A DNA stretch of 64,000 bases from Mytilus edulis (GCF_963676685.1 NC_092344.1:64790001-64854000); one strand, 5' to 3'. Shown: positions 6,301 through 56,523, numbered from the stretch's first letter. Notes: a model not told the origin generated them from the sequence alone. Program-made: numbers and translations.

Positions 6301-9300
6301 AGTTGCTATTCATTGTCGTATATTTAAATGAGCATTACTGTTATATATACACCAGAAAGAATAATTCTGTACTTATATGAGATCCGAATGCATCCTATAG
6401 CAGGGAAAAGTATGCTAGTAAAATGCTAAATTATCAAGTAAAAACAGAATATTCAAGCAACTGTGTTACATAGACAATTACATTTAATGTTTGTTCAAAA
6501 TGAGGCAGGATACAAGAAGTCGATCATGCTTAACATAATACATTTTGTGATCTTACCTACTAGTATATTCGTATTGTAAAACAGCTGATCTCAGGACAAA
6601 GAAGAAAACGTTCTGATGCTCAAGTTATTATTAAGACAGTTAAACATGTACTTTTAATCTATCTTAATGAATACGAACTATCACAATAATCTGGTATCCA
6701 TAATATCAAGTGCTCTAATAGGGTGAGCATAGTCAACATACTCTCATGTGTATTCATAATTGACGCATTTTACATCTTTAATTCCAGATTATCCCTTACA
6801 GAAATACTGATAGCCAGACAAGTAGTAGTAACATACAGTTTAATGACCTGCAAATTAGGCACCCTTCATTGAATTGGACAGATATACTCCCAGATGTAAA
6901 ACCGAACACACCAGTCAGCATTTCACATTCAACTTATTTCTATGGTTTGGATAGACTTATCGCCGATACAAGTGCAGATATTATCAAATTATATGAGTTG
7001 ATAACAGTAATCACTCGAGGATTATGGAAATACCTCCCATATGATAAGCGGACTTATTTGTATTTTAGTGACATCATAGAAGAGCGATATGATTGGTTGA
7101 GATGTGTCAATTTCACCTTTGACCTTTTGAATTCTGAATTGCATAAGGAATACTCCGTAAAGATGTCGACCGATATAGCTGATGGAATAGAGGACACAAA
7201 AACTGTGATTGAAAATATAACAAATGTTGTGAAATTTAATACAGACAATTCCACAGACCTCAGTAAAGAAACGAAATTGTCACTCTTTAATAAATTGTCT
7301 TCACTTCAAGTAGAGGTTTTACCGCCACCAAACGTGGATTTATCATTCAAATTAACGTCTTCCATATCATTTGTTCTTTCTGCAACTGAATGTTTGAAGA
7401 AACGATTCAATGAAGATATGGCAAAACTGGGAAAATCAACGAAATCAACAGTGACTGAATGGTCAGATCTCAGACCTCAGTATAACGATAGGTTCAATAA
7501 AATAGGTAACATTTTATTTTGAGTATCAAAAATTAAAAGTCTCAGAATAATTTCACTGAAAATTGTGATTTGAAATATTGTTTGCTTTTTATAAAATTTT
7601 ATATTAGAAAACATTTACATTTTGGTGTTATCTCTCTTATCCTCTTAATCTATTTGTGTCTAAAATTATGAAACAAAAGTATGCATAAAAATCCCCTCCC
7701 TCCAATTATAATCGATCTTTTATAATGTCTGTCAATGTTTTTTTGTCATTGTATTATTTTTTAATCTATATTTTGTTGTTGATTAGTTAAATAAAAACTA
7801 TAAATTAGAAAGTTAATGAATCAGACGCAATAAAAACAAAATCCAAAGAAAAACAATATCGTCAGTGATGAAGATCATAAAGAAAATAGTTCCAAAAATC
7901 TGTTCATCAAATTTCGTTAAAATGTATTTTTAAAAATCTTTTACTACTAAAAAATGTGTATTCTATTTTCCAGAACTGCCACTTGGACTTACCTCTTTGA
8001 TGGTTGAGAAAGAGCCCTTATTTCCTATTCTAACAAGTGTAGGATTTAATTTGGCATCGAACATTATAAAGGCATTATACGGTAAGGTTACATATGTCAA
8101 TTCTATGACTGGAACTCAGAAGAATTCGAACCGCCTCGGGTGTTCAGGGTAAAGTGTTCACCTCGAGTGTTGCGGGATGTCATCGGTTCGAATCGCGACA
8201 CGGACTAACCGAATACTTTAAAATGGTCATTTTCTACTTCTCCGCTACGTACGCAGCATTAAGGAGTAAACACACCGTGGCATACTGGCCATCTCGAAGT
8301 CGGATCACTGTGTCCGGTACGATGGCATGTCTTGTAAAATGTTACCTTGTGAAATAGCAGGTTTAAAATCCTGCTTCTCGTGTCGTTCTAGTACAATTTG
8401 TAATTTCTAAAGGTAAATCGATATAGGAAGATGTGTAAATGCATTTTTAACTACGTAGTTTGTGTCTACATACCAACAGTATCAAGTAATTACATTTGTT
8501 TACAGGTTCCATGGATATAGCTTTAGCAGAATCATGGTGGAGTTCATCCTCATCCTCATCTTTCCTCGATACATGGAATTGTTATGACAATCAACTTTCA
8601 TCAGACATTGATGTAAGATATCTCTAATAACGTTTAATATTCATTTCAAAAACAAAAACTTATAAAAAGAAACCTTTCAAAATCTATATAATTTTAAATC
8701 AAATCGTTTTTCTTCGAACTGAAATGAATAGCCATTTGTTTGCACATTGCGAACTAATTTGTTTTATTTGATTCGAACCAAAATGTTATGCAATATATTG
8801 TTAATCTATCTATAGCATATAATTTATGTTAATAAACAAGTATGGACACAGACGCAAATTGTCAGTGGGGTTAAAAGTCGTTACAAATGTATTGAAAGCT
8901 AGACTGGAAATGTGTATTAACAAATTGAGTTGATGTGTACATGTCTTCATTCAAATGCATTGACTGATAAAAAAGGGGGCTTCAACTTCCACCCCTCTCT
9001 ATGAATTAGTTGTTTGAGTGTTTGAATATGGAGTTTGTTAATAAATAGCTGCACAGTAAGCGCATGATATGTCTCCAATGGGTTTTCAATGTAGCCAGAA
9101 ACTCCTGCACTTATAGGTGTCCAAAAACTATAAAATCCCTTCTTTTTTTAAGCATATATAAAAATTCATAACACAGAAATGTATAATCTGAAATTTATTA
9201 CAATCAAAAGGGACCTTAGGTCAATAGTTTAAACAATTCACCAAAGTTTAATTAAAGGTGATGGATGCATTTTTGTGTTCTTGTTCAAAATTGGAAAATT

Positions 9301-19500: not shown

Positions 19501-19997
19501 TTCTATATACATGAACTACAATGAAAACTATTACAATTTTAAACGTCGCAAAGGAAACCAAATTTTCTACAGTGAAACAACTGGTTGTCGTCCGGAAAGA
19601 TATCACTTTAATACTTATTCACACCCCATCACAGAAAACCTAAACCAGTATATCACAGCGGAACCTTCGTCGCAGACAAAAAAGAAAAAAACTGGTTTAT
19701 CGTCTTTTGTTGTTATCAGTCGAAAGTATTTTACGGGTCACTATTGCTTTCATTATTTTATGACCATTACTTGATGCGTGCACATCGTTAAAGTGATAAT
19801 AAATCAATGAATTTTGACACAGAATATATAATGTCCCAGACGCATGTCTTTATCTACCTGCTGTTCGTCTGTCATATAACGTAATATAGCATGTATAGTA
19901 TGACCTTGAATGATAAGAAACGTCATGCTAGAAGTCGTTAAGTAAAATTAAAACTCTTATCTGGGATTCAAACAATTCATGCATTTATTCTGATACA

Positions 19998-21941
19998 ATG
20001 GCTACTAAGTATGAAGAAAATAACTTTGAAGAATTCGGACAATTCAAGGACTTATTAACATGCACTATTTGTCGGAATATTTTGACAGTCCCAAGGCATT
20101 TACCATGTCTCCACAATTTTTGTGAAAACTGTTTAAATCAACTATTATCAACTATTTTGAAAGATTGTAGCGAACAAATTTTTAAATGCCCAATATGTTG
20201 GAGACCAGTTTCCATGGAAAAGGGGATAAACGATTCTGAGTCATCAGTAATGCAGTTTCCTCTGAACTATTTACTTATGAATATAATAGAACAAAAGGCT
20301 ACCACAGTGTCAGTGAGCTTTTGTAATTCGTGTGAGCTGAATGGAAATAAAAGTGAGGCAATTTCATGGTGTACTTATTGTAAAGAGGCATTTTGTAAAA
20401 ATTGTGAAAGATGTCACAGAGCATTCAAAATAACATCGACACACTGCATATTATCCCTGCACGATATGAATGCCGACGAAACAAAATTTAATTCATGTAG
20501 TATGATTTACTGTTATCAACATCCCGATAAAATAGTTGAAGTGTATTGCATCGATCATTCTAAATCATGTTGCTGTTTATGCGCAACACTTTCACACCGG
20601 AAATGCGAAAGAGTAATTCCTATTAAGGACGCGGCAAAATGTATAAAGAGTTCAAATACTGTGAAGGAAACATTTATTCATCTGGAAGAACAATTAAGGA
20701 AAGTTGACGAATTGATGAAAAATCGTGCAGACTGCATGGACATATTTGATAAGGAAACCGATGTTGCTATAAAACAGATGAATGAAAGGAAAGAAATCTT
20801 GATAAACCATATACATAGAATATCGGACGTAACATTAAATCGTTTGACTGCATCGAAAAAAGACATATTTGTGTCTCTTACCGATGAAGTTTCTGGTTTG
20901 TCAAGGTATAGGGCTTTTCTTGATAATATATATAGGTTTTCCATTGCCTGTGTGGAACATGGTTCAGATGAACAATGTTTAATAAATATTGAGAAAATCA
21001 AATCTAAATATTTAGAAGTTAAAAACGAGATGCAGAGCGTAATATCACAATCACGAAAGCCCTCGGTAACCATCGAAGTTAATGATTTTATTAGAAATTT
21101 CATTCAAAACTGTAAAACGTTTGGAAATAGTTCATTAGATCTTTTAACAACCAAAGCCTCCTTCGGACTGTCCACAAAGAATTTTGATATCGGAAACATT
21201 GAAGTCTTGAAAATCATCCATATTAATGACGGTGGTTTTGGAAGCAGACAAATAAGCGGAATTTTCATGGATGACGCAATTTTAATTACGGATTCCCTGA
21301 ACAAAATGATTTTAAAATACGATGAAAAATATGTTATACGGACAAGAATGAAATTATCCAAGGAGATAAGTGATATTGCACGCATAGATACGAACACTCT
21401 TGCGGTTGCCTCTTCGCTTTGCACAGAAATCTACATCATTAACATTGCTAATATGAGTTTAATAGAGGCAGTTGAAACACTTTCCCCTGTCTTCGGCTTA
21501 GCGTATGTAGATTCACATTTTATTACCGCATATAACGATACACTGACTTGGACAACATTATCTGGACATCAAATTAAACAGCACAAGACTAAGGGGGATA
21601 CATGGTATGTTTCTGCATCAAAAACCAATTCGTATATTTATGCGGACGGCACAAATTCAGTTTCGGTTGTCGAAGACAGAGGGAGAACTACATCGTACAA
21701 TTCTAAAACATTAACGAATCCAAGAGGAATAGATACTGATTCGGAAGGAAACATTTACATTTGCGGATTTAATTCTTCTAATATTCACCAAATTTCTAGC
21801 GCAGGCGAACTTATTAGCGATATATCATCAATTAAATTAGGAATTGAAAGACCTTGGGTAATACGATTTAAACCTCAATCGGGAATTTTTCTATTAACAT
21901 CATATGATAAAGGAAAATTTGTAATTTGCCAATTCAAATGA
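19998..21941 (+). CDS. Intronless TRIM E3 ubiquitin ligase (RING, two B-boxes, coiled coil, NHL-like beta-propeller; TRIM2/3/56/71-like architecture), 647 aa
   Basis: C3HC4 RING CTIC...PCLHNFCENC...CPIC; B-box1 CNSC...WCTYCKEAFCKNCERCH; B-box2 CYQH...YCIDHSKSCCCLCATLSHRKC; helical middle region; C-terminal NPRGIDTDSEGNIYICG propeller repeat; single uninterrupted ORF. Confidence 0.93.
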   Translation: MATKYEENNFEEFGQFKDLLTCTICRNILTVPRHLPCLHNFCENCLNQLLSTILKDCSEQIFKCPICWRPVSMEKGINDSESSVMQFPLNYLLMNIIEQKATTVSVSFCNSCELNGNKSEAISWCTYCKEAFCKNCERCHRAFKITSTHCILSLHDMNADETKFNSCSMIYCYQHPDKIVEVYCIDHSKSCCCLCATLSHRKCERVIPIKDAAKCIKSSNTVKETFIHLEEQLRKVDELMKNRADCMDIFDKETDVAIKQMNERKEILINHIHRISDVTLNRLTASKKDIFVSLTDEVSGLSRYRAFLDNIYRFSIACVEHGSDEQCLINIEKIKSKYLEVKNEMQSVISQSRKPSVTIEVNDFIRNFIQNCKTFGNSSLDLLTTKASFGLSTKNFDIGNIEVLKIIHINDGGFGSRQISGIFMDDAILITDSLNKMILKYDEKYVIRTRMKLSKEISDIARIDTNTLAVASSLCTEIYIINIANMSLIEAVETLSPVFGLAYVDSHFITAYNDTLTWTTLSGHQIKQHKTKGDTWYVSASKTNSYIYADGTNSVSVVEDRGRTTSYNSKTLTNPRGIDTDSEGNIYICGFNSSNIHQISSAGELISDISSIKLGIERPWVIRFKPQSGIFLLTSYDKGKFVICQFK

Positions 21942-24446
21942 AAATAGTTATACTTGTCTGAAATGAAGAAAATACAACATCGTTAATTTTGCAAGACGAA
22001 AACAAATTTGACTTAATCGGCGACCGCGAAAACGTATTGCTAGTGACTTGATTTGTGACTATAAAACATGTGAAATGTCAATCTCGGTCGTTTTTATTCA
22101 GGCACTCAAAGTTCTTAATATATATTGACCCTTTTGAAAGCGATAAAGAAATCATTTAAACAAGTCACATAAACATATTCTTATCTTGCTATGTTTGTAA
22201 TATTTGCCATAAGATGTTAATCACAAATCCTTCAATATCACTGAAAAATTCGTTTGATAATTTACTATAAAGGTACTATCAGTTAATTGCCATCGACAAA
22301 ACAACTATGTCTAATGACCTGAGAAAATATTCCCAATACATAATAATCTGACAAACAGTGTTCCTGTTTAACAATGTGAAAGGTGTTAAATAATAAAGGA
22401 CATAAAGAGCATAATGTCAGCCTTAGACTCTTCTGCATACATAGTTTGATAAGCAAGACCTTTAACAAATGGTTGAGTTTGCATAAAAGAAACGCGAAAG
22501 ATACCATAGCAATATTCAAACTCATAAGTCGAGGCAAAAGCCATTTAAAAAAGAAAAAAAAAATCGATAAAAGACGAAACGAAAAATAACAGTAGACAAA
22601 AAACAAAATATAAATGCAAAACTAAGCAACAAGAATCACATAAAAAACCAGATATATGGATGTTTCGGTAAGGCAAAACTGATCTAGTACCACTTGTGGC
22701 TTCGCTTAAAATGAAAGAAATAATATAAGTAATCAGCATGATACCGTTGATGTCGTTTAAATCTGTTGCAATTTATGTTTAGTGTAAATAGTGCGTTTTC
22801 AAATTCCATACAGCGACTTAAAACAATTTCTTACTAATGTGAACATATAACTTAGGTTACTTTTACCGGAAATTAGTGTTATTTCAACTTTCAAAAAATA
22901 TTCATATACCGTATACATGTACAATGAATTCGATCTTGAAATGCAAAGATAGCCATTTCAAAGAAACAAGATACACGAAATATAAGAAAGGCAATCTTAC
23001 CTAAAATGATAGGCATTAACTTATTCGAGAAGCGTCAAAACTTAGTGTTGCTCTTGCTCTTCCAACCGGTTTTCACATGCGTGCATGTTTCCATGTTTAC
23101 CGTCATTGACTACCAATACAGGTTTGATCTCATGCTGACGACCCAGTTCATTTTAGAACAAATGAAAAAGTGCATTTGTCCAAATGGGTTTGAATTATAG
23201 ATAAAGGTCTGAAAAATCTCAATGAATATCAATAGATCCTGGCGTTGGTTGACATTCAGTGATCCTGTCAATTATTTATTTTTCTAACGCCAAGAATACA
23301 AATTATCTTGCGTCCTCAAAAAGATACATAAAATATGGATGAACGTGTAGGTAGTGGTGTACTAATGCAGATCAACAGTTGTAGATAGGGACTCTAGTCA
23401 TCGGTTAAGATACTCTATATATTGAAGATTTTTATAACGATATTCGAACAGTTATACAATTTATGAAACAGGAATTAAGCTACACTAGCAGTGCTTTTCT
23501 TTTGTTCCTCATCCGTGTGCTGTATTCATGTCTCTCAAAGTTTCGAAGCTCTGAATCATTTTATATTATTTTGCCTTCCAAAATATTTGGTTTCAATCAC
23601 TATTGGCAGGTGCAGTGCCAGTGGTTTAGATGCATTTGTTTACATTTTTTGAATCTTTTTGTTGGACAGAACTAAAACAAAATAAAACACAAGTCATACA
23701 CACTAGAATTTACGTGCTTCTAAATTCAATGCTAAATCTTAATTTTTTTCTATAGTTTGTCAGTGACTGGTGTTTTTTTTTTGTCGCTTTTTTCTTAGTC
23801 ACTGTGTTGCCTGTTTTTCTTCGATTCTTTGTTTTTATTTACTGCATTAGTATCATATCCTCTTTTGAGATCAAATTTCCAAAATATTTTTTTGGAATAT
23901 TGATTTCTTTATAAACATCCGATATTTATTAATGTTTTATACAATTCGTCATTCAAATTTTTCAACGATCCAATTATCTTTCATTAAGCTGCAAACGTAT
24001 TAAATATATACCCTGAATCATCCCTTTCAAAACTATTATACTTGTTTTTATTAAAATGTATTAATATCTCAAAATTTTTCAATAGTTCTTTCAAAATTTA
24101 AATCCCTTATTTATCTTAAAAGTTATTCCGTTATCAAATATTTTCCTTAATAATAGGAGGGAATTGGCATTTACATGAAACCTAGTGGTAATACTGAGTA
24201 GCAGGGGCATTAATCAATTTGGATCTTTAAATCCAAAACAAAGAATTTAAGCTAAAACATTTGCATTAACAAGATAGAAAATTATTTTGAATCGATTCTA
24301 TTTCATCCAATGACAGTTGAGATCAATTATCTTAAAGTGAATCCTTTTATTATTATTATTTCGTATAACATAAAATGGTTTTCCAATCAGTTTTAAAGAA
24401 TATCATGCATAACACATCTGGACAGGTTGACAATCTAACAAGAAAT

Positions 24447-25754
24447 ATGAAGGCACTGCTTATTCTGCTCATAATTCTCCCTGTAAACGCTGTTTTATAT
24501 TCTGACGGAAAACGTTTGAACGAATATCTATTAGCGAATTACTCAAGACGTTTACACCCTAGAATCAACCTTAGCGAATCAGTTACAGTTATAGTTGATC
24601 TTTTCTTGAACTCCGTCGTCGATTTTGATGTTTTAACTGGAATTTTGACGTTTGCAGGAACATTTTCATTATCGTGGGACGATGAACAAATTGGTACGAG
24701 ATGGAATAATTCTGAATTCAGTGAGATTACCAAGACACAACTAAATGTACATGAAGTATGGGTTCCGAAGCTTTATATTCGAAATATGGTTGAACAAACT
24801 TCAATCTTTCAGTTCAGCAGCACATTTGATAGTGAGTCAACATTTGTATCATTTTCGCCAAATGGAACAGCTAGGATAAAGCTTGTTACAGTCCTTCAGA
24901 TAAGTTGCACCACGGATATTACATTTTATCCGTTAGATCAACACAAATGCGATCTTTCAATCATTACGCTCAACTTTAACAGGACCGTATTACTTAGAAC
25001 GTTGTTGACTACAATGTTAAATATGCACACCGTTGAAAATTCTGAATGGACTATATCCTCTTCAGTATATAGTGGCATTTCAGCAGGTCCGTTTTCGGAG
25101 CCCATATATGAATTAAATTTCACTCGAAAACCATACTTTCTGGTTCTGAATTTAGTTTGTCCATCTATTATTATATGTACAGTAAATAGTTTATCATTCT
25201 TGATACCAGTAGCATCAGGTGAGAGATTGTCATTCTGTGTCAGTCTTCTGTTAACATACATTGTTTTCTTAACAACTGTTTTAGACAAACTACCACCAAC
25301 AGACACAGTGTCTTTGTTTAATATTTTTTTGTTAGTACAACTTATTTATAGTAGTTTGACAGTCTTTGGAATAATAAAAACACTTGAATATTATCATTTC
25401 GAAGGCAACACAGTTGTCCCAGTTGCATACAAAAACATTGTTAGATTTGTACTTCGTTGCAACTTTAACTTGAAGATTTCACCGAACACGACGACTACGG
25501 CAAAAACATTAACTGAAAACCATTCTTCTTTTAGCACATATAAGAACAATGATGAAAACAAAATGAATCTTACAAGCGGAGACTTGAAAGATAATAAGGA
25601 TGACACAGCGGATCTGGACAGTGACTACGACAATATTGCATGGCGAGACGTAGCAAGAGCTTTAGACAGGATTATAAATATAATAGCTACATCTGTTGTT
25701 ATTTTGAACCTGATTTTGTTTTTGATAATAATGATTGGATTACATACAGAATGA
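24447..25754 (+). CDS. Intronless Cys-loop ligand-gated ion channel subunit (nAChR-like, non-alpha, divergent), copy 1
   Basis: Signal peptide from ATG 24447 (MKALLILLIILPVNA; the ORF is open from 24375), VWVPKLYIRN, Cys-loop CTTDITFYPLDQHKC, ENSEW, RKP-M1, M2 SGERLSFCVSLLLTYIVFL, M3, WRDVARALDR-M4. Confidence 0.93.
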   Translation: MKALLILLIILPVNAVLYSDGKRLNEYLLANYSRRLHPRINLSESVTVIVDLFLNSVVDFDVLTGILTFAGTFSLSWDDEQIGTRWNNSEFSEITKTQLNVHEVWVPKLYIRNMVEQTSIFQFSSTFDSESTFVSFSPNGTARIKLVTVLQISCTTDITFYPLDQHKCDLSIITLNFNRTVLLRTLLTTMLNMHTVENSEWTISSSVYSGISAGPFSEPIYELNFTRKPYFLVLNLVCPSIIICTVNSLSFLIPVASGERLSFCVSLLLTYIVFLTTVLDKLPPTDTVSLFNIFLLVQLIYSSLTVFGIIKTLEYYHFEGNTVVPVAYKNIVRFVLRCNFNLKISPNTTTTAKTLTENHSSFSTYKNNDENKMNLTSGDLKDNKDDTADLDSDYDNIAWRDVARALDRIINIIATSVVILNLILFLIIMIGLHTE

Positions 25755-28010: not shown

Positions 28011-28639
28011 AGTGGAAGCATCAGTTTTTCTATGGTATGATAGTCCAAATCTTTTAAAACACTTTTTTTTCTTGTGAACCGCTTTTGAGAGAAAAAAAAC
28101 CCTGTTTTTGGCTTTAACAAATTTTTATCTTTTTAATGTACATGCAAGGTAAAACATACGACCTAACACTAATCATAATATCTTCTTTGTATAAAAGAAA
28201 GTTAGTATATGAATCTTCTAATGTAAAACGGATGGTTTAAGACGAGATAATTAATTTTCATTAATCCAATTATACTTAAGAATGGAATTTCATCCTGATG
28301 AGACATAGAACATGTAACAGCAGTTATCACATTATTTGTAGTCTGCAAGTATGGATTTTTATTATAAAACTCTAGAATAAACTATATATCTAACAGCTTT
28401 TCATTGTTCGTTCAGAGAAAATGTATTTGTTGCGTGTGAATATTTGATATTGTTTAATACACACGCATATACAGTTTCATTTTAATTGCCATCACATGTT
28501 TTTGTCATAATCATTTCTGATACAGAAGGTGTTATTTCGGTAAGAATAATTATTATGGTTATTCATATATAATTTTTTTTTTATTACATCATAATATATA
28601 ATTATTTGGGGGAACGTTATCTTCGAAACATTTAAACAT

Positions 28640-36231: not shown

Positions 36232-37175
36232 TCTTCAACTATTCACAAAATTATCGGTACGAGATAATTGTAACCATGTTTAAATAACACTTTCTTTAGA
36301 AATTTGAGAAACATAGCAAATCATGTGTTTATTTACTTCAAAAAGTAATAATTTCGAAAGAGACATATTAACACATTTAAAGGTCTTCGCAAAATAAAAA
36401 TAAAAAATGGGTGTCTCAGAAATAACACTTATTAAAGTTGTCAATGGTTGTGACAAAGTTGGATCTACACATAAGGATTTTTATTAACACACAGGACCAA
36501 TCATCTAGTGCTAAACTAATTTTGAATAGCAAAGAAACATCCTTTGTTCTATATTACAATGTAGATAATGAAAATTATAAAAAAAAAATCCATATCAACT
36601 AGTCATTGCAAATTCTGAACCATTAAGATGCAAACTGATATAAAGAAGAACCTGTGTATCTAAAGTTTAACATCTAATATAAAAGACACCAAATCGTTAT
36701 CTTATATATGTACAAATCTTGGAAAATACATTTGTAAATAACTTAACTTTATCAAAACAGAACCAAGTAAAATCACAAAAATACTGAACTGAAAATAAAA
36801 AAAAAGGAAAGTCCCTAATCCAATGGCAAAATCCAAAGCTCAAACACATGAAACGAATCTATAATAACTGTCATATTCCTGATTTGGTACAAACATTTTC
36901 GTATGTAGGTAATGATTGATTTAGCCTGGTTTTAAACTAGCTTAACCTCGCACTTACATGACAGTCGCATCAAATTCCATTATATTGACAATGATGTGTG
37001 AACAAAACAAAATGTAAGAAATTTTTATATTTTTATTAAAAAATAGTAAAAGGGACTTTCATAGTAAGTTAATTATTCAGGCTAAGTATGATTTATTTGC
37101 AGATACTAAACAGGATGGATTATATTTATCTAAAAACTGTAACATGACAATTATAATTTATTTTCAGATATTTAA

Positions 37176-40100
37176 ATGATTTTCATTTTGTTAGTATTGA
37201 TAGCAGCTACACATTTTGCTACAGGTTAGTTTAGAAAAAAATATTATTCCGATATTAAATTTATATATTTACACAAAAAGTATTGTTTAGAAATAACGAC
37301 CTTTTAATGCATAAATAGGTCATAATGAACTATAACATTTCTGTAATAATTTTAGAAAAATAATCATGGCATTCTATTCAACTGTCATACAAGTAAGAGG
37401 TTTAAAAGAGAGCTATAAAACCAGGTTTAATCAGTCATTTTCTATAAAAGGAAGTGCCAATACTAAGAGAGGAATATGACAGTTGTTTTCTATTTGTTTG
37501 ATGCGTTGACCTTTTGATTTAATCATTTGATAAGAGACATTATGTTTTGAATTTTCCTTGGAGTTTGTAATTTTTGTAATTTTGTTATCAACACCTTTTG
37601 GAATAAAAAAAAGTATTTACTTCTGTGGTTTTTGTTTTTGTTTTTGTGTTAGTGTTTTTTTCTCATAATTATTGTTTGAATTCAGGCAATTGCAAACTGA
37701 TTTATTTTTATTATAGCTTGTATCCATTTCATTTGAATTTTTGTCTCCTTAAAATTATATATATTTTTACGAGAAGTATGTAGCTTTAAGAGAGCGTGGT
37801 ACTTTTGATTTAAAGTCCCTATTTCGACCGGATATTACAGAAGATTCTTTTAGTCCGCACAGCCAAATAGAAACTAGAATGTAGAAGGGGTTTTACTGCC
37901 TGAAAATATGCCAATACTCTTTTGATAATGTCATTAAAGGTAAAATAACAAAAATGCTGAACTGTAAGGACAATTCAAAGCAAAAAGACCCTTATTATTC
38001 ATAATTGATCTGGTTATGTATAAACCTTTTTATAAAAGTAATACGTATATATCTTTCGATTGAGATAACCGATATAAAAGAAAATACACACTAATAATAT
38101 GTAATATTTTCAAAATATGCTTCCATTCATATTTTTTTAGGATGGAATCGTTATTACCATCGAAATTATTATTACAACAACTATGGTACAACTGAAATGT
38201 CAACAGGACCTACAACAGAAGATACTAGTAATAGTTCGGTTACTATGAATCCCTTTACGAACGGTACATTTACTACTGAAATGACAACAGGACATACAAC
38301 AGAAGATATAAGTGCTAGTACAGTTACTATGAATCCCTCTTCTATTGGTACTAGTAATTCGAATTATATGACAACAGGACATACAACAGAAGATATAAGT
38401 GCTAGTACAGTTACTATGAATCCCTCTTCTTTTGGTACTAGTAATTCGAATTATAAAATACCAGTAACTATTCGACCAAGAAAAATTGGTTAGTATTATG
38501 TGTATGTTAACAACTATTTCTTATCTTTTTCTTTTCAATTTACTAATTAAAGATGGTAAGGATTACAGGGAACAATTATAAATTTGCAAAATTATCAACA
38601 ACATGTAAACTAGTTCATGAGTGTGTGGAAGAAACAATTTCTTCATGTCAAAATCACGACGAGTCATGTGGTTAAAGAACCCAATGTATGTAAACAAACT
38701 CTGAATATAAAAAAAAAATAAATAAAAAAAATAAATCTTACGAATCATTTGGATATAATGAAACTGCAGTTTGAAACTAAACGACAGAAATTTTAGATAA
38801 AAGATGAGGAGACAATTCCCATAGGACTGGTGTAATACCACCATTTATTTGCTCATATAAGTCTTTGTTAATTTTGCAATTTTCCTAAACATGTGCTTAA
38901 TGTATCTTTGTTTCAAATCAAGAAATACTAGTTAAGGGTAGAGTTTTATCCCATCCAGTACTACGGAAAAAATGTCACATAACATTTCATTTCATTAAAA
39001 ATAACAACCATCACTGGAAGTTATACAATCAAATTTTCACTCCTTGTATAACTGTGTACAAGCTTTAGTAATTATGTAACCTCAAGATTCCAAAATATTC
39101 TATAGAAACAACAATTAAAAAAAAAGAACAGTGCTGTGAAACAACAATATTATATGTTTATGACTTAGAAAATATTTTCTGCAATGAAATGTAGTATTAA
39201 TTTCATACAACAATCAAATTCAAGAGAATATTTTTTTTCGACCTTTGGTCGTATGCAACCAGATATGACGTTCTATGAAATGGTTGTATTACACATTCAT
39301 GTGCTTTACACCGAAGCCGTTTTCCTGCTACTAAACCATATAGGGGAATTCCTAGCACATTCCCTTAAAAAGTATATTTGAGTTTTTTACTCTTATATTG
39401 AACTAATAGGAAACAAAATTATTAATGCAAAACATGGTTTGTTTTTTTTTAAATTAAAAAAAATTCGTTGTCTTTATTTAGAAGAAGGATGTTACACAGA
39501 AATGACATTCCACATAATTTGTGTAACTCAAAATTATTTTTCCCGATGAATTGCCAATTGAGTGGTTCTCGTAGTGTTATTAATTAAAACATGTCATGTC
39601 ACATCTAAATTTTTTGATTGTCTATATTTCAAAAACCTTTAGGATGTGGGAAGAAGGGAGACATAATATTTGTACTAGATTCATCTGGCAGTGTAGGAAC
39701 ATCTAACTGGAAAGTTATGCTGAAGTTTGTGCAAGATGTCATCAATATTTTTACTATCGGTAAAAATGATGTTCAGGTTGGGGTTGATATCTATGCTAAT
39801 TCTGCTTCTACACGCATAAGGCTGAACTCTTACCAATCAAAGACACAGTTAATGGATGCTGTGAAACGTATTTCCTATACTAATGGTGGAACAGCTACAA
39901 ACCGGGCGATACATCATTTGATAAGCAGTAGTTTTTCGTCGTCACATGGTAATTAATTTATAAATGATTAGAGCTCAGAAACTTCATTTATTGTTTTATA
40001 TTTGATACGTTTCCCTCAGTTTTAGTTTGTAACCCGGATTTGTTTTCCTCTATCAATTTATGAATTTTGAACAGCGGTATTCTTCTGTTGCCTTTATTTG

Positions 40101-43100
40101 TTTAAAACTAATGGTTTCAGCTACGTCTTTTAAATAAAACAAAAAATGATTCATTTCACTTCAGTTTTGAAAGTAATTTATTGCATTGATTATTTTTGCT
40201 GTGGTCGCATCATACGTTAGTCATCACCTAAATTATATTCAAACTACATGTAGCTAAATGAAAATATAAATACTCAATTAGTTTTTAAAATCCGTTAAAA
40301 ATAAAAGACTGATAACATTGGCAAAACATGTAAATCACTGAATGCTAGTATTGTAATCATAAGAAGAGTATGAACTTTTACAATGTAATACGATACTAAT
40401 TCATTGAAACTTTTGTTCTGATCTTCAGGTAGCCGGGTTGGAGTCCCGAAGATTGGCATCATATTAACAGATGGCAGATCGAATTCACAATATTCAACAA
40501 TATCTGCTGCCAACGCCGCCAGAAGGAAGGGAATCGAGTTGTTTAGTATTGGAATCGGTAGTAGTGTCAATACTATAGAACTGAAAGGAGTAGCAAATGA
40601 TCCAGACAGTATGTTTTACTTCAGTGTCCACAATTTCAAAGCGTTGCAGTCAATTGGGAGTAGATTAGCCTCAGAAACATGTCAGAGTATGTAAATATAC
40701 ACAAAGTTAATATTGATATTTTAAGATTTAACTGCTCTTTATGTAAAAGCGAAATTGTGTTTTTTATTTCCTTATAAAAATCATAATTACTTATGCACTG
40801 AATCTAATCTCGTTTGTGTTGTGTTTGAAATTGGGTTAAGAAAGTAACAGACCGAGTTTTATTCATATTTAGATATGAAGCGAAATATACTTCATAGCAC
40901 TTTTTGTGTGTGATGCTCTTGAACGTTTATAATTTTTGTTTTTGATTCTCGAGCTTGACTTGATGATTGTTGTTCACGGAAGGGGTCTGATGTGATGCGC
41001 ATATACTTTATTTTATAATTATCACTTGTTGTATACAGAAGCTTTAGTTCTGAATATAACAAAAGAGTGGCGAAAGATACCAGAGGGACAATCAAACTCA
41101 TAGATAAAGAAAAATGTGTCCCCTGTACACGGATGCCCCACTCGCACTATCATTTTTTATGTTCAGTTGACCGTGAAATTTGGATCAAAACTCTTATTTG
41201 GCATTAAAATTAGAAAGATCATACCATAAGGAACATGTGTACTAAGTTTCAAGCTGATAGGACTTCAACTTCATCAAAAACTACCTTGACCAAAAACTTT
41301 AACCTGAAGAGGAACGAACGGACGAACGGACGAACAGACGAACGAACAGACGGACGGAAGAACGGACGTACAGACCAGAAAACATAATACCCCTCTACTA
41401 TCGTAGGTGGGGCATACAAAAACTGACAACGACATGGCTAAAAATGAAAAAGGCAAACAGACATATAATAGTACAAAAGATACGACATAGAAAACTAAAG
41501 ACTAAGCAACATGAGCCCCACCAAAAATTGGGGTGATCTCATGTGCTCCAGAAGGGTAAGCAACTACCCCTTAAAAGAGTAAGTGCTATATTTTCAAGAA
41601 TGTATATTAGATTTTTCTTCTGTATCATTGAACACATTTACCATAATTAATACTTAACAAAGTTTCTCAATAGTTTTTAACATCGTTTCACCTTTTGTTT
41701 GGATACAGTGTATACATTTTGCACGAATATACATATTTATGTATAAATTGAGCGGTTGAAGATGATGTTAATGATAATTCAAAAGTTATTCAATGAAAAG
41801 CCAACAGTAAACTTTACATAAAAAAAAATCAATACTTATATTTAAAAAAATAATAAAAATTATGATAATTATAATTTCATTCGTTTAAACGGGCAGTGCA
41901 TTAGAATGAAATTAATTTCTCCTGGGTGTTTCATCATATGTAGCATAGAGGGCGTAATGTTTTCCCGCTTCAAAATTATTTTCGCAGTATTTTATTGCCT
42001 ATGTAATCATTCAGCACGACATCGTCAATCTGAGCAGTCGAATGTTCTTGGTAAATTTTAATTCTGGTTAAAGTTTATTAAGCTTTTATTTGGAGAATTT
42101 TTGTTTGATACTGATGTTTGAATTATATATTATATGTGGAGATATATATGTATGAATTATGTTTATTTCTTATTAAATATAGAGCATCGGCGTTGTCGTG
42201 CGACTATCCACTTTACAAAGTCTTTGGTATTTATTATAGCCTTTTATGGCGTGTATATTCAGAGTGTATATGTATGCTTGGATATTTGGTACAAGTATTG
42301 GTTATACTTGGATATTTGGTACAAGTATTGATTATACTTGGTTATTTGGTGCAAGTATTGGTTCTATGTCTACATTGATGGGTGGTTTATACCAGGAGAA
42401 TAATAAATCTAATGATTACGATTTTGTTTCAGATCTTGACCCGATAATTGGTAAGTGTTTTCTTTTCATATATATGATTACAAACATTTTGAATCATTAG
42501 ACACATTTTATATTCCAAGTGTTTCATCTTACTGGAAGCTTCAACGTGATTCATGGTGATAGTAAATTAAAACAAGAACAACGTCACTATGTAAAATTTT
42601 ATTTTCATTATAAAACACCACCCTTGGAATCAATTATTTTAACAGAAGAAAAAAGAGAATTGTCAACACATGTCATAAATTGAATTTATTAAATCATCTC
42701 TTCGAAAAGAGTACAACTTTTATCTTTTAAGCTGTTATGAGTTTGATAGTTGTAACCTTAATTGGGATATGCTTGAAAATATTTGTCATCTTAGTTTTAT
42801 TAAGTTTCCTCTTATTAAAAGGTTGCAAAGCTGGTGCTGATATAGTATTCCTCGTTGATAATTCTGGAAGTGTTGGTTCAAGCAACTTCAATACCACCTT
42901 GATGTTTATTTCTGATATTGTTAACGGTCTAAATATCGGCAAAGAGAAAGACAAATTCCAGTTGGGAGTTCTAACATTTCATACTCCAGTAAAGGCAGAA
43001 TTTAATCTTGACGAATATCAGGATAAACAAGACATACAGAAAGCCATTATGGAAATCACATACGAAGGAGGTGGTACAAATACAGGAGGAGCTATTAAAT

Positions 43101-46100
43101 ATTTACACACAACAGCATTCTCGAGGACTTCAGGTATAGTTGCTTTTTCTAAGCAAACCATGATCTTAATCATTTTCAAAATGATCGTGTAATTGATTTT
43201 AATTTCATGTCTTTTCCAATTGTATATAAATTAAAAAAAAAGGTTTGAATGAATGATTTATTTTCTCACAAACCATATATATATAATCACATGATTAATA
43301 AACAATCAGTTATAGTTGTTTAAACAAGAAGATAGACTTTCACAGAAATATATTTGACAAATCTACACAGTTTCTAAAGTTCAACAGAATTTTGGATTGA
43401 ATATACTTGTTCGGATTGGGTATCATTCTCTATTTGACATTCGTTAAAGTGCTCTTGATTGATATTCTTTTTAACAAAAAATGACAATGCTTTAATTTTG
43501 ACATATTTTGTTTCTATTACAAAAAGAAAAAGATGAATAATTTAATGCAAAGATAAGCAGCAAATCAACACCAGTTTAAAAAATATGTAAATAACGGAAT
43601 TGAGCCGTTATTATTGTTATTTGGTTATACTTTTAGTACTCACGTAAGAAACCGTTAATGTTATCAAAAGTTCTAGGCTTATGATTTAATACACCAGACG
43701 CGCGTTTCGTCTACATAAATCTCATCAGTAACGCTCAGTTCAAAATAGTTGTAAAGAGCTAACAAACTGTAAAGATAGCACACCATGATTTGGTCAGAGT
43801 TATTTAGAATATTTCAAAACTCCTACAGACAAAAGTGAGGTATATTGTCACCTAATCAATGTTTGTATGCACCATTTATTAGCATTATGTTTTCTGTTCT
43901 GTGCGTGTGTTCGTCTGTTTGTTCGTCCGTCCGTTCGTTTGTCCGGCTTTCTCGCTTCAGGTTAAGGTTTTTGGTCTAGGTAGTTTTAGATGAAGTTGAA
44001 GTCCAATCAACCTGAAACTGAGTACATATGTTCACTATGATATGATCGTTTTAATTGTAATACCATATAAGACTCTTTACCCCGTTTTCAAGGTCCACTG
44101 AACATAGAAAATGATAATTCGGTTTGGGCATCCGTTTACTATGGACACATTCTTGTTTATCATGTTTTTACCTGAGTTTGGATTAAACACTCAAATTGAA
44201 ATGAAATTGTGAAAATTGGGACTTGCATGCATTTATTTCATATTTATGTTACATTTTCGTTTTATTTTCGTATCAGGGCATAGACCTGGCTATCCAATGA
44301 TTGGAATATTAATAACAGATGGGTATTCATCAAACAAGGCAGAAACTCGAAAGGAATCAATGAACGCCCGGTTGAAGGGCATCAAAATGTTTTCCATAGG
44401 AATTGGTAATGCCATTGACACGACGGAACTTGAAAGTGTTGCTAGCGAACCAAAAAGTCAGTTTGTTTTCACTGCTGCAAGTTTCAAATTATTGAAATCT
44501 ATTGAATCATTATTGCTGAGTAAGACATGCGAAGGTACGTGTTTAAATGATATGAAAATGTTTACATATTTGCCAGTCTATCAGAAGATGAACTATATGT
44601 CAAATCAACTACTAATATGTGTTGTTTCAGAATCCGAAATACATATACAAAACAAATTAGATAATTAAGTTAACTAATTTTTTTTATTTGTAGTAGATAA
44701 AAAAGTGCAAGCGTCGGTAATTTTTTAATATACTAAAAGTTATTAAGATCTCTGTAGTTCAGATATCATTAGCATAGTTAAACACTTATGCTCATGAACC
44801 GATTGAAAGTTAAAACAAAATCAAGGAGCATTGAAAATAGAAGCGTCAATTTGCATCTGAACGTGATCTAATATAATTGAATTAAAAACATTAAGTTTTT
44901 CTTAGTGTTGGAAAAGTAATTTATATTCAGATTTTTAACTCAAGCTGGCTGTTGATTCAGATTTATTTGGTCACTTTTAAGCATTGTGGTTCTAGTGTTT
45001 ATCTGAAAAAGACTCGAAGTTGAACAATAAAATTATAGAAGTGTCAACTAATGTGTTCACTTGATTGATTTATTATAAATTGGACAATATTAATTTTAGC
45101 ATTAAACAAAACGGCAAAACGATCGAAATAAACATTAAATTTAAAACGTTTATACATTGTTTCATGAAGGGTATTTTTGAATAGCCAATCATAAACTATA
45201 TTTAAAATTCATGCCTGATTCATTTAATTTCAGTTGCTGATATCAGTGAGTATTCATAAATTATAATAATGAAACAATTGCATACCGTTGAAACTTATAA
45301 AACAAATGGTTTTCAACATGACAAAAGGATGTCTTTAGCTGATAGACAAAATGTTTACAGCCAATCAGAAGATGTGTTAAGCCAAAATTAAATAATTGGC
45401 TCGTTATTCCGGAAACTCAATTGTAATCAATTGCACACATGTCATATGCATGGTATATAATAGATGTGAAAATAAAATGTATTCCAAATTGTTATTAATT
45501 TACCCTTCTGATAAATTTAGACGCACAAAATGTATAAATTTTATACTTTATTCTTTTATTTTTTCAAGTGATGCACATTAATATATGTAAGACTTAGTAT
45601 TGTCTTTCGATTCAGCTTGTTGGGGGAAAACAGACATTGTATTTCTACTCGAGGATTCCTGTCATATCGGAGAGACGAATTTCAATAAAATGTTACAAAT
45701 GGTTATAAACCTTGCGGAAGAAGTCCCAATTGGTAACGGAAATATTCAGATTGGTGTCAATACTTTCAAATGTACTGCTAAATCAGAATTTGTACTTGGA
45801 AAGTACAAAACTGGAAATGATATCATCAAAGCTGTCCAGAGAATTAAATACACAGGTGGAAAAGTGTCTATTGGCAAGGCTATTGAATACACCAGAAAGA
45901 ACAGTTTTCCAGGTCTTTATTTAACTCATCTATAAAGAGCTATCTGAACTTTATGTAATTTAACTCTTTAACAAGACATGATCTCAAAATGCATTAGGGA
46001 ACAACATGTATAACATAATATTTGAATTCCGAAGCAACTATTAATTTATCATTTTGTATTTCAATTTATATCATTAAATGTACTTTTTCTAAATAGAAAT

Positions 46101-47087
46101 ACACATTTGGTTCATATTGGCAAATTATCATTCCTTTCCAATTTTTTTTTGCAATATCGTAATTTCTACATTACTAGTTCGATGAACAACTAAACAAATA
46201 TATAAGCGGACATATTGATGACTGTTGTACCCCATATTTTAACCATGTCATACTTTTAAAAATGCCGATACCAAGTCAGGAATATGACAGTTGTTGTCCA
46301 TTCGTTTGATGTGTTTTATCATTTGATTTTGCAATTTGATTAGGGACTTTCTGTTTTGAATTTTCCTCAGAGTTCAGTTTTTTTTTTACTTTACTTTTTT
46401 CAGATTTGTTAGTTCGGACAAATGACACAAATTAAACTTAATTCTTAATTATAACTCTTGAAAATTATGCTTTCTTCTTATAAAAAGAAATTGTTGATAA
46501 CAATTTTCTTTTTTTAAACAGAAAATCGCAGTAAAGCGAGGAAACTGATGATTATTCTAACAAATGGATCTGACAAGGCTCTATCAAAAACACTAGGAGA
46601 AGCCCAAAAAGCGAGAAACAGTAACATAAAGATTATGGTAATAGGAATCGGCGATTATACCCATCAAGATTGTCTCCAGGGAATGGCAACAGTACCGCAT
46701 GATAAATACGTATTTTCCCAAGACAGTTTTGATCCTCTGAGAAATATGAGAGATGTTTTAATACAAAGAAAATGCTCTGGTGAGTACTAGAACTTATCTG
46801 TCTTTCCCATTGACATATTTTAACAGCTCTTAAATACCTACAAATCTGTTCACCTAAACAAAGGTTACACGTATTCGGAACATTGTACGAAATATAATAT
46901 GCTTATATATATACCAAACACATGCATCGGTAAAAAGGTTGATATAATTTTCATTGATTGGAATCTTTTTAAAAAAAATTTTAAAATCTCCAATGTTTAC
47001 AGTCGTGTTATTAATCACTGGTATATTAATCATAATATAATGCTATATATAATCTGATTTTGACATTTTTCTTTTATTTCAGCATAG
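37176..47087 (+). CDS. Secreted protein: signal peptide, Tyr-rich N-terminus, Thr/Ser-rich repeats, three von Willebrand factor A domains (matrilin/collagen VI/PTMP-like vWA), 706 aa
   Basis: Exons 37176-37224, 38141-38488, 39643-39948, 40429-40686, 42433-42450, 42822-43133, 44277-44534, 45234-45245, 45616-45912, 46522-46779, 47083-47087 (GCA TAG). All introns are phase 1 GT-AG; total 2121 nt = 707 codons. vWA motifs: DIIFVLDSSGS...ILTDGRS, DIVFLVDNSGS...LITDGYS, DIVFLLEDSCH...ILTNGS. AATAAA at about 47139. The donor after 45912 (gtcttt) is weak. Confidence 0.87.
38197..38454 (+). repeat. Coding tandem repeat (one 84-bp and two 87-bp units) encoding a Thr/Ser-rich mucin-like spacer
   Basis: 38281-38367 and 38368-38454 differ at one base (MTTGHTTEDISASTVTMNPSS[I/F]GTSNSNY); 38197-38280 is a more diverged unit. 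Confidence 0.9.
41060..41562. mobile_element. Penelope-like tail fragment interrupted by a nested HINE-like element (~41108-41420)
   Basis: gcgaaagataccagagggacaatcaaactcatagat resumes as aaactgacaacgacatggctaaaaatg after an insert with a tgtgtcc..tacacggatgcccca hairpin, a (gacg/gaac)n microsatellite and a cccctctac..gtaggtggggcata end. Confidence 0.8.
42279..42362. repeat. 30-bp tandem repeat (about 3 copies) gatatttggtacaagtattg.ttatacttg
   Basis: Directly visible. Confidence 0.85.
43691..43734 (-). ncRNA. Minimal type I hammerhead ribozyme motif, best-preserved copy (intact CUGAUGA/GAAA core, weakened stems)
   Basis: Minus strand: gcgtta-CTGATGA-gatttatgtagac-GAAA-cgcgcg-TC-tggtgt, with a palindromic stem III (cgcgcg) and a GUC cleavage triplet. 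Confidence 0.65.
43870..44158 (-). mobile_element. HINE-like element, inverted relative to 41108-41420
   Basis: cattatgttttctg...(gtcc/gttc)n...ttcaggttaaggtttttggtc.aggtagttt...gggcatccgtttactatggacacattcttgtt is the reverse complement of the 41108 copy. Confidence 0.78.
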
Positions 47088-54763: not shown

Positions 54764-55209
54764 TTAATGTCCTTAATTACGAATCCATTATTTTTACTCT
54801 ATTTTATTGTTATGATAATTCTTGTGCTATTTTAGCTAACATCGCTGGTTTCAATCACTCTCAAATTTCCGTTAATTATTCTATAGTTAATCAATTAGTT
54901 TTCTTTGTTTTTGTGACGACAGTTATCAAATATTGTCTATGTGATGTGAGTAGTGAATTAACAGTTAAACTACTTTAGTAAACACCAGGGGACAGCAATC
55001 AATATTGACTAATGGTATCTGAATGAAATAATTGCATTGAAGTTATACGCTGTTGTCAATCGACTTAGTTTCATCCTATTTCATTTGCCATCTGTTTTAA
55101 AAAAACAGTAACCACAGATTAATATTACTAAGAGTTATATAATTATCGCCGCACTGTCCTTAGTTACAACATATTAATTCTGGACATTCAAGTTTTTTTT
55201 ACTAGAAGC

Positions 55210-56523
55210 ATGAATGTACTGCTATTTGCGTTCGTAATTACTGCAGTAAAGGCTGCTTCATATTCTGACGAGAAACGGTTAAAAGAGTATTTGCTAGCCA
55301 ATTATTCAAGAGGTGTGAAACCAAAAACTAATCTAAGTGAATCACTTACAATAATTGTTGATCTTTACTTGAACTCAGTCATCGACTTTGATGTTATAAC
55401 TGGAATTATGACCATTGCTGGAATATTTTATATAACATGGGAAGATGAACAAATTGCTACAAGGTGGAACAATTCGGAATTCTCTGATATCGCTTTGACA
55501 CATTTTCATGTACACGAAGTATGGGTTCCAAAGTTATATATTCGGAATATGGCGGAGGAAACATCAATTTATCAGTTTAGCAGCACGTTTGATAGTGAGT
55601 CAACATATGTAACGTTTTTTCAAAATGGAACAGCTATAACAAGTTTAGTAACTGTCTTTCACACAACGTGTAACACGGATATAACAAATTACCCTTTCGA
55701 TAAACATACATGTGATATAACAGTTATTCCACGGAACCTTTTCAGTTCCCTTATTCTTGAAACGTCAGTTACTTCCGTTTTAAATGAGTACACAATTGAA
55801 AATTCTGAATGGAGTGTATGTTCTGCAGTTCAACAGGACCTTTTAGGTTCAGTATCGAACGTCAATTTTGTTCTATACTTAACTCGTAAACCATATTTCC
55901 TGGTTCTGAATTTAGTATTACCATCTATTATCATATGCACAGTTAATAGTTTATCGTTCTTGATACCAGTAGAATCAGGTGAGAGATTGTCATTCTGTGT
56001 CAGTCTTCTGTTAACATACATTGTTTTTTTAACAACTGTTTTGGACAAACTACCTTCTACAGACACGGTGTCGTGTTTCAATGTATATTTGTTTTTACAA
56101 CTTATTTATAGCAGTTTTACAGTCTTTGGAATAATAAAAACTCTCGAGTACTATCATTACGATTGCAAAAAAGTCGTTCCTATGTCATACAAAAACATAG
56201 TGAGATACTTGCACAAGTTCTTGTGTTATGTAAAAATTGCACCAATCAAAACGATAATGGTGACGACAAAATCATCAAAAGAAGATCATTCTCCTTTAGG
56301 CAATAGTCAGAACGTTGACGAAGACAAAGGAAATCACCAGAAGAGGGACATGACAGATTATGACCATAAAGAATCATCAAATAATCTCTGCAATGGACGT
56401 CATCATACTACATGGCGAGATGTAGCAGAGACATTAGACCGGGTTCTCAATATGATAGCTATAATTGTTGCTTTGTTTAATTTCATTGTGTTCTGTATAA
56501 TCATGATTGGATTGCAAAATTAA
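55210..56523 (+). CDS. Intronless Cys-loop ligand-gated ion channel subunit (nAChR-like, non-alpha, divergent), copy 2, 437 aa
   Basis: Signal peptide MNVLLFAFVITAVKA, VWVPKLYIRN, Cys-loop CNTDITNYPFDKHTC, ENSEW, M1-M3 nearly identical to copy 1, WRDVAETLDR-M4. Confidence 0.93.
   Translation: MNVLLFAFVITAVKAASYSDEKRLKEYLLANYSRGVKPKTNLSESLTIIVDLYLNSVIDFDVITGIMTIAGIFYITWEDEQIATRWNNSEFSDIALTHFHVHEVWVPKLYIRNMAEETSIYQFSSTFDSESTYVTFFQNGTAITSLVTVFHTTCNTDITNYPFDKHTCDITVIPRNLFSSLILETSVTSVLNEYTIENSEWSVCSAVQQDLLGSVSNVNFVLYLTRKPYFLVLNLVLPSIIICTVNSLSFLIPVESGERLSFCVSLLLTYIVFLTTVLDKLPSTDTVSCFNVYLFLQLIYSSFTVFGIIKTLEYYHYDCKKVVPMSYKNIVRYLHKFLCYVKIAPIKTIMVTTKSSKEDHSPLGNSQNVDEDKGNHQKRDMTDYDHKESSNNLCNGRHHTTWRDVAETLDRVLNMIAIIVALFNFIVFCIIMIGLQN

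Follow-up and report, generated by a model that had tools for sequence, protein, structure and literature searches.

The plus strand of the window (the whole 64,000-nucleotide stretch of Mytilus edulis DNA analysed here, GCF_963676685.1 NC_092344.1:64790001-64854000) carries at 37176-47087 a gene of 11 coding exons, which translates without internal stop into a protein of 706 amino acids. The protein consists, in this order, of a signal peptide, a 15-residue Tyr-rich tag, a 100-residue Thr/Ser stalk and three vWA domains, so that the modular build put forward in an initial annotation of this DNA was borne out by the 706-aa translation and by Pfam. The tagged gene is a lineage-specific variant of a common type of secreted vWA protein. 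We read its product, tentatively and with somewhat less than even confidence, as a secreted matrix adaptor of the matrilin/collagen VI type, in which the Tyr tip on its stalk would anchor the protein in the extracellular matrix and the vWA heads would hold collagen or a similar ligand.

All introns of the gene are of the GT-AG type and lie in phase 1; the exons and associated features are collected in Table 1.

Table 1. Exons and features of the triple-vWA gene, in positions of the window
Feature	Position	Strand	Remarks
Coding exon 1	37176..37224	+	start codon; codes for 16 residues of the signal peptide (predicted)
Exon 2	38141..38488	+	348 nt, phase 1-1; codes for tag and stalk
Tyr/Asn/Arg/His tag	38143..38187	+	residues 18-32; 6 Tyr in 15
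Stalk repeats	38197..38455	+	three 87-nt (29-residue) Thr/Ser-rich tandem repeats
Alternative acceptor	38207..38207	+	in-frame AG at 38205-38206; would skip the tag; corresponds to M. californianus isoform X2; without a pyrimidine tract here
Exon 3	39643..39948	+	first half of vWA1: Cys134, D145-S147-S149, T216
Exon 4	40429..40686	+	second half of vWA1: D249, Cys319
Exon 5, 18-nt micro-exon	42433..42450	+	vWA1-vWA2 linker; size-matched gap in contigs of X1, X3 and X5; orthologue proteins
Exon 6	42822..43133	+	first half of vWA2: Cys328, D339-S341-S343, T412
Exon 7	44277..44534	+	second half of vWA2: D445, Cys515
Exon 8, 12-nt micro-exon	45234..45245	+	vWA2-vWA3 linker; 12-letter gap in X3, X5 and X13 contigs
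Exon 9	45616..45912	+	first half of vWA3: degenerate metal site E533, H537, K603; extra Cys536 and Cys573
Exon 10	46522..46779	+	second half of vWA3: N634, Cys670, Cys704
Exon 11	47083..47087	+	final coding bases and stop codon

Splicing was checked in 8 of 24 public runs, comprising six contig sets and two raw RNA runs; the RNA status of the contig sets is a guess, yet exons are joined at GT..AG in their records. Exon 1 is linked to the tag exon in a 2145-nt contig of run X10, with the joint running from 37222 to 38139 (GT..AG), and in contigs of X1, X5 and X2 upstream letters precede the tag exon start. The tag lies within a spliced record in at least four of the six contig runs (X10, X1, X5 and X2), and the joint between the tag exon and the first vWA exon is present in all six. 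Retention of exon 38141-38488 in transcripts, on which the initial annotation had staked its proposal, holds for contigs of the window gene; an isoform model of M. californianus is without the tag. The weak-looking donor after exon 9 is in use, its joint from 45909 to 46519 being found in four of four contig runs, and the last joint, from 46778 to 47082, in three of four. The 12-nt micro-exon is missing from public models P0002, P0004, P0014 and P0018, through either annotation error or alternative splicing. The raw RNA runs X21 (approximately 6% read) and X24 (approximately 18% read) gave zero reads on the three exons tested, although the species label holds the gene in other runs, which argues for restricted expression.

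An acceptor at 37167/37168 points to another 5' untranslated exon upstream of coding exon 1, and a piece of run X10 (37167-37222) has a loose end in front. A tentative candidate for the end of such an exon lies at 28531-28539 (+), 8.6 kb upstream of the start codon and next to a consensus donor; it matches the X10 loose end with one mismatch, over nine letters only. Three 30-nt repeats at 42273-42363 lie in an 86-codon frame (42183-42450, +) that continues without a frameshift into the 18-nt micro-exon, and short X13 contigs covering 41997-42398 could stem from DNA, from intron retention or from an alternative first exon of a two-domain form. Elsewhere in the window, two intronless ligand-gated ion channel genes at 24369-25754 and 55132-56523 (+), each with Neur_chan_LBD and Neur_chan_memb domains (Pfam), are alike and flank the vWA gene on either side, likely through local duplication of acetylcholine-receptor-like genes. 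A single frame of 669 codons at 19932-21941 (+), with a RING finger, Cys/His-rich boxes, a coiled region and a beta-propeller-like end, is of the TRIM-type E3 ligase kind, and an exon-like frame at 6782-7522 (+) matches peptidase family M13.

Residues 1-16 are the sole strongly hydrophobic stretch of the 706-aa model, and by the small-residue rule of signal-peptide cleavage the cut would fall after Gly17. The cluster of six Tyr in 15 residues reported right after the signal peptide was found exactly there; alongside Tyr, the tag holds 4 Asn, 2 Arg, 1 Trp, 1 His and 1 Gly, and no Lys, and its DNA is 29% GC. The mature protein as a whole (75 kDa) contains 3.3% Tyr. Six Tyr in 15 residues exceeds chance expectation: in non-coding DNA of the window, only 2 of 40,260 stop-free windows of 15 codons hold at least six Tyr, none of 891 such windows behind a phase-1 YAG does so, and the four other long ORFs reach at most 4 Tyr per 15. 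Among 148 distant vWA proteins, 19 have a 60-residue stretch with at least 40% Ser plus Thr and three have 5 Tyr in 15 anywhere, while none has 4 Tyr in 15 inside the first 80 residues and none combines both features; a Ser/Thr stalk beside vWA domains is hence fairly common, an N-terminal Tyr cluster is not. Tyr sulfation follows a nearby acidic residue, and was thought unlikely for the tag, which has none.

The Tyr cluster is also conserved, a further point that the initial annotation had left to be settled in orthologues, with 5-7 Tyr kept in the tags of five Mytilus species. The M. galloprovincialis tag (P0190, annotated there as a 71-aa orphan) is identical in 15 of 15 residues as read by eye, that of M. 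trossulus (P0001) in 14 of 15 with 5 Tyr, and that of M. californianus (P0011) in 13 of 15 with 7 Tyr. In M. coruscus (P0002) the match falls to 9 of 18, with 7 Tyr and 4 His, indicating that composition is kept where sequence turns over. The vWA part of the window protein is 96% identical to that of P0001; against M. californianus, identity is 87% in the tag, 65% in the signal peptide and 92% in the vWA part, the contrast between tag and signal peptide being one of 13/15 to 11/17, a small sample. Most differences between tags are single-base steps among NAY codons and could have arisen by drift in AT-rich DNA. Acidic residues, Cys and Phe are absent from the tags of all five species, and His is 1 in 15 in four of them. 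The tag had been thought to escape the ORF track; this does not extend to annotation in general, since the orthologue models P0001, P0002 and P0011 include it, and the protein is already in public gene models of orthologues, under automatic names.

These data bear on the possibility that exon 2 was gained for the stalk and brought the tag along as a nearly neutral by-product, so that only stalk and vWA domains matter. The acceptor of exon 2 precedes the repeats by 66 nt and is set in AT-rich sequence with many NAY codons, and the low GC content of the tag DNA and the strongly changed M. coruscus tag fit this explanation. The exon moreover contains 12 in-frame AG sites, the first of which (38207) corresponds to the acceptor of the tag-less M. 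californianus isoform; that second model, P0003, differs from P0011 in lacking precisely the tag plus the first residues of the stalk. No tag-skipping joint was seen in X10 or X2 contigs, which drop rare variants. We nevertheless regard a by-product as rather unlikely, given the rarity of six Tyr in 15 codons in both the non-coding and the phase-1 acceptor windows, the persistence of 5-7 Tyr in five species whose tags acidic residues, Cys and Phe never entered, and the presence of the tag-containing form in at least four of the six contig runs.

The spacer behind the tag, expected to be Thr/Ser-rich and about 95 residues long, is indeed Thr/Ser-rich, with 26 Thr and 16 Ser (42%) and only 6 Pro (6%), but spans 100 residues (33-132). 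Four full-length orthologues carry 2, 3, 3 and 4 repeat units, and residues 10-130 of P0001, the tag included, have a pLDDT below 50 in the AlphaFold model and are predicted to be disordered. Thr/Ser-rich tandem repeats, variable repeat number and disorder are the marks of a mucin-type stalk, and the composition suggests that it is probably O-glycosylated. The X10 and X2 contigs are each short of one 87-nt unit, reflecting either a length polymorphism within the species (a two-repeat allele) or assembly collapse. A furin-like cut at the stalk end was considered and dropped, as the basic residues are not conserved among orthologues. No second copy of exon 2 was found in the genome at the DNA level, and a protein search of the genome gave only two weak unrelated matches (E 0.5 and 0.9); the exon was also absent from the 20 kb of the paralogue described below, and an ESM Atlas search with it gave no usable match.

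The tag might instead bind a partner non-covalently, by stacking on chitin or glycans, by binding metal through His and Tyr, or by sorting the protein into secretory-granule condensates. It is the aromatic and His content that stays conserved, and in M. coruscus the tag has shifted to a higher His content (4 of 18 residues); mytilids moreover have YGH-rich foot proteins (PMC5549309, in part), and mfp-3s self-coacervates with its Tyr mostly unmodified (PMC5132118, in part). On the other hand, exon 2 matched no chitin-binding or other family in Pfam, and four of the five species have but a single His in the tag, and we consider non-covalent binding a minor possibility.

A paralogue lies 280 kb downstream on the same contig, with the same vWA exons and a signal exon spliced straight to vWA1; it matches M. 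edulis P0013 at 100%, exon by exon. The tagless paralogue (P0013/P0005/P0012/P0004, carried under the names 'cartilage matrix protein-like', 'matrilin-1-like' and 'COL6A') shares with the tagged gene three vWA domains, at 69-76% identity per domain, as well as the exon breaks and the degenerate third metal site, and differs in having no tag/stalk exon and a Leu in place of Cys670. An unnamed protein, P0008 (66% identity), is tagless too. A tree built from the vWA parts unites the four tagged proteins in one clade (support 98/100) with a stem length of 0.25 changes per column; the corresponding value for the tagless groups of Mytilus is about 0.04. P0027, chosen as outgroup, covers just 32% of the columns and the tree is not resolved at its base, for which reason we do not claim that the tagged copy evolved faster. 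The absence of exon 2 from the paralogue indicates that the tag/stalk exon was probably gained; under this unresolved base, parsimony favours the gain of one symmetric exon of phase 1-1. The tagless isoform model, together with a tagless paralogue persisting in four species, implies that the vWA part works without the tag. P0006 (M. galloprovincialis) and P0007 (M. californianus) form a second tagless group (support 99/99), which suggests a third paralogue; only two members of the triple-vWA family were found in the genome. At least 150 matches to vWA exons were counted there.

Pfam placed PF00092 on three stretches of P0001 (E 6.6e-126), in keeping with the vWA superfamily profile, and found no families other than the vWA type, EGF, FN3 and collagen triple-helix domains all being absent. 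Each domain sits between a Cys pair, and the inter-domain linkers are 6-8 residues long. Of the three heads envisaged in the initial annotation, vWA1 and vWA2 retain the metal site, their five MIDAS residues (D145 to D249 and D339 to D445) being invariant in all eight aligned family members, whereas vWA3 has lost it in all eight (E,S,H,K,N/S; here E533, S535, H537, K603 and N634). The extra Cys536 and Cys573 of vWA3 are again invariant in 8/8 and may form a disulfide that seals the former metal site, as a pseudo-MIDAS. Cys670, which among the eight aligned proteins is confined to the tagged clade, replaces a Leu/Val in a helix and is hence likely buried; its use as a free thiol for cysteinyl-DOPA links was dropped. 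The AlphaFold model of P0001 (mean pLDDT 74, pTM 0.49) comprises three alpha/beta vWA folds, with a TM of about 0.9 to single vWA domains in Foldseek, where PTMP1 ranked first (E 2e-33, 27% identity), followed by collagen VI and integrin I domains. A sequence search of solved structures placed collagen VI alpha 3 first (E 5.9e-161, several stretches) and PTMP1 second (E 9.3e-43). No transmembrane stretch was found, the highest 19-residue hydropathy after residue 20 being 1.33.

In the adaptor model that we favour, cleavage after Gly17 would leave the tag as a free N-terminus, which the acidic stalk, O-glycosylated and extended, would keep away from the heads. The clustered Tyr, with His, Arg, Asn and Trp, could first stick to like sequences through aromatic, cation-pi or His-metal contacts, and might then be fixed by oxidative cross-links, as DOPA-quinone or dityrosine, so that the Tyr tip would replace the job of the matrilin coiled coil, which the window protein lacks. 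The first two vWA domains would bind the matrix ligand through a divalent metal, collagen binding being suggested by the family. Candidate matrices would include the byssal core, the periostracum or shell matrix, gill or connective tissue, and mucus. The spliced architecture, a conserved tag beyond chance, the invariant MIDAS of vWA1 and vWA2, the fold matches and the precedent of preCol-D speak for such an anchor. Against it count the failure of the literature search to turn up tissue, proteomic or modification evidence for the gene, the tagless isoform model, the persisting tagless paralogue, a tag of only 15 residues, the drift among NAY codons and the example of mfp-6, which has 20 mol% Tyr but 3 mol% DOPA (PMC5132118, in part); as its Tyr is poorly converted, Tyr richness does not imply DOPA.

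Should the tag prove to be modified and anchoring, a matrix protein would have been turned into a tethered cross-linker by the gain of one symmetric exon, while a paralogue of the ancestral type survives intact at a distance of 280 kb, and splicing might act as a switch. The untagged paralogue would then serve as a natural control for an adhesive protein evolving from a matrix protein, and the combination of Tyr tip, stalk and vWA heads would offer a small, defined design for wet collagen-to-surface linkers. If the tag is neither modified nor anchoring, the gene adds another secreted vWA protein to a large family, represented in this genome by far more than a hundred exon matches. The combination of tag, stalk and triple vWA was not described in the titles and abstract openings searched; key foot-gland and byssus catalogues lie outside that scope and could already list the protein. 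Six accessions of orthologues and paralogues were not mentioned in the main texts searched. Neither family peptides nor names matched the supplement of PMC13022425 or those of PMC6641155 and PMC6508894, which both concern Perna (peptides may differ in PMC6641155).

Local richness in Tyr, Asn, Arg, Trp and His is a property of TMPs, and the tag shares it with mfp-3 and the YGH-rich foot proteins, with no homology shown. The likeness to mfp-3 that had been drawn is weak, a partial overlap in Y/N/R/W/H composition, and fails in size, Gly and overall Tyr: mfp-3 is small, unstructured and Gly-rich, the whole protein being 5-7 kDa with 25-29 mol% Gly (PMC5132118, in part), whereas the window gene encodes a folded protein of 75 kDa with a single Gly in the tag. 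It is relevant here whether the protein might be a primer of the byssal plaque or interface, its DOPA tag sticking to the outside surface in the manner of mfp-3 while the vWA heads grip preCol fibres. The overlap in composition with mfp-3 (PMC5132118, in part), PTMP1 as the top fold match and the restricted expression suggested by the absence of exon reads in both raw RNA runs are all consistent with such a role. We consider it distinctly unlikely in view of the mismatch in size, a tag with one Gly and no Lys, the low Tyr content overall and a gene that is not PTMP1, and the failure to find the protein in the supplements searched counts weakly in the same direction. Furthermore, mussel proteins with vWA domains have been reported from the shell layers nacre and myostracum (PMC4517812, in part), and genes that bear the name cartilage matrix protein are reported for basal-membrane cells of the gill (bioRxiv 10.1101/2023.05.29.542712, in part); with the many vWA exon matches in the genome, a vWA domain does not point to byssus. 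A bolder version carries equally little weight with us: gain of one exon might have given Mytilus its own byssal or periostracal primer, with a DOPA tip, a glycosylated stalk of variable length and an alternative acceptor that switches the tip to yield anchored and free collagen-binding forms.

The relation to PTMP1 (PDB 4CN8/4CN9/4CNB) suggested at the outset stands as one of fold, PTMP1 being the best match among solved structures in that respect, and not as one of orthology. Both are secreted Mytilus proteins with tandem, Cys-bracketed vWA domains and a short Cys-x-Cys linker, and PTMP1 is the best mollusc sequence match among solved structures, the match being confined to the vWA part. PTMP1 has two domains instead of three, however, and its intra-domain intron breaks about a dozen codons earlier, in the helix after the G-x-T motif, whereas in the window gene the break falls on the Gly that precedes the Arg of the next loop. 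This intron position, the identity of 27% and a separate PTMP1 gene on contig C11 rule out that the window gene is PTMP1. Immediately downstream of PTMP1 on C11 (L037:3150-3800, L038:50-620, minus strand) we noted frames with Tyr-Thr-Pro-Ala-Pro and Pro-Tyr-Val-Ala repeats, together with one EGF-like exon, exons of collagen-type Gly-X-Y sequence and a repeat frame rich in Trp, Ser and Ala, possibly a byssal or matrix gene cluster.

The secreted vWA adaptors of the matrilin/cartilage matrix protein group and the arrays of collagen VI and XII are the source of the automatic names. Matrilins have EGF repeats between their vWA domains and a C-terminal coiled coil; the window protein, by contrast, has short linkers without EGF and a stop two residues after vWA3, which leaves no room for a matrilin-type coiled coil, and it differs from collagen VI and XII in having no Gly-X-Y triple helix anywhere in the 706-aa model. 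For the tip, a precedent is offered by the byssal thread itself, in which core-gland matrix proteins contain DOPA and the N-terminal DOPA of preCol-D is oxidised for covalent cross-links (PMC11667028, in part). The window protein lacks the collagen domain of the preCols, but resembles their DOPA/His ends in presenting a short Tyr/His terminus on a structured protein, which in the preCols serves for cross-linking (PMC11667028 and PMC4754843, each in part).
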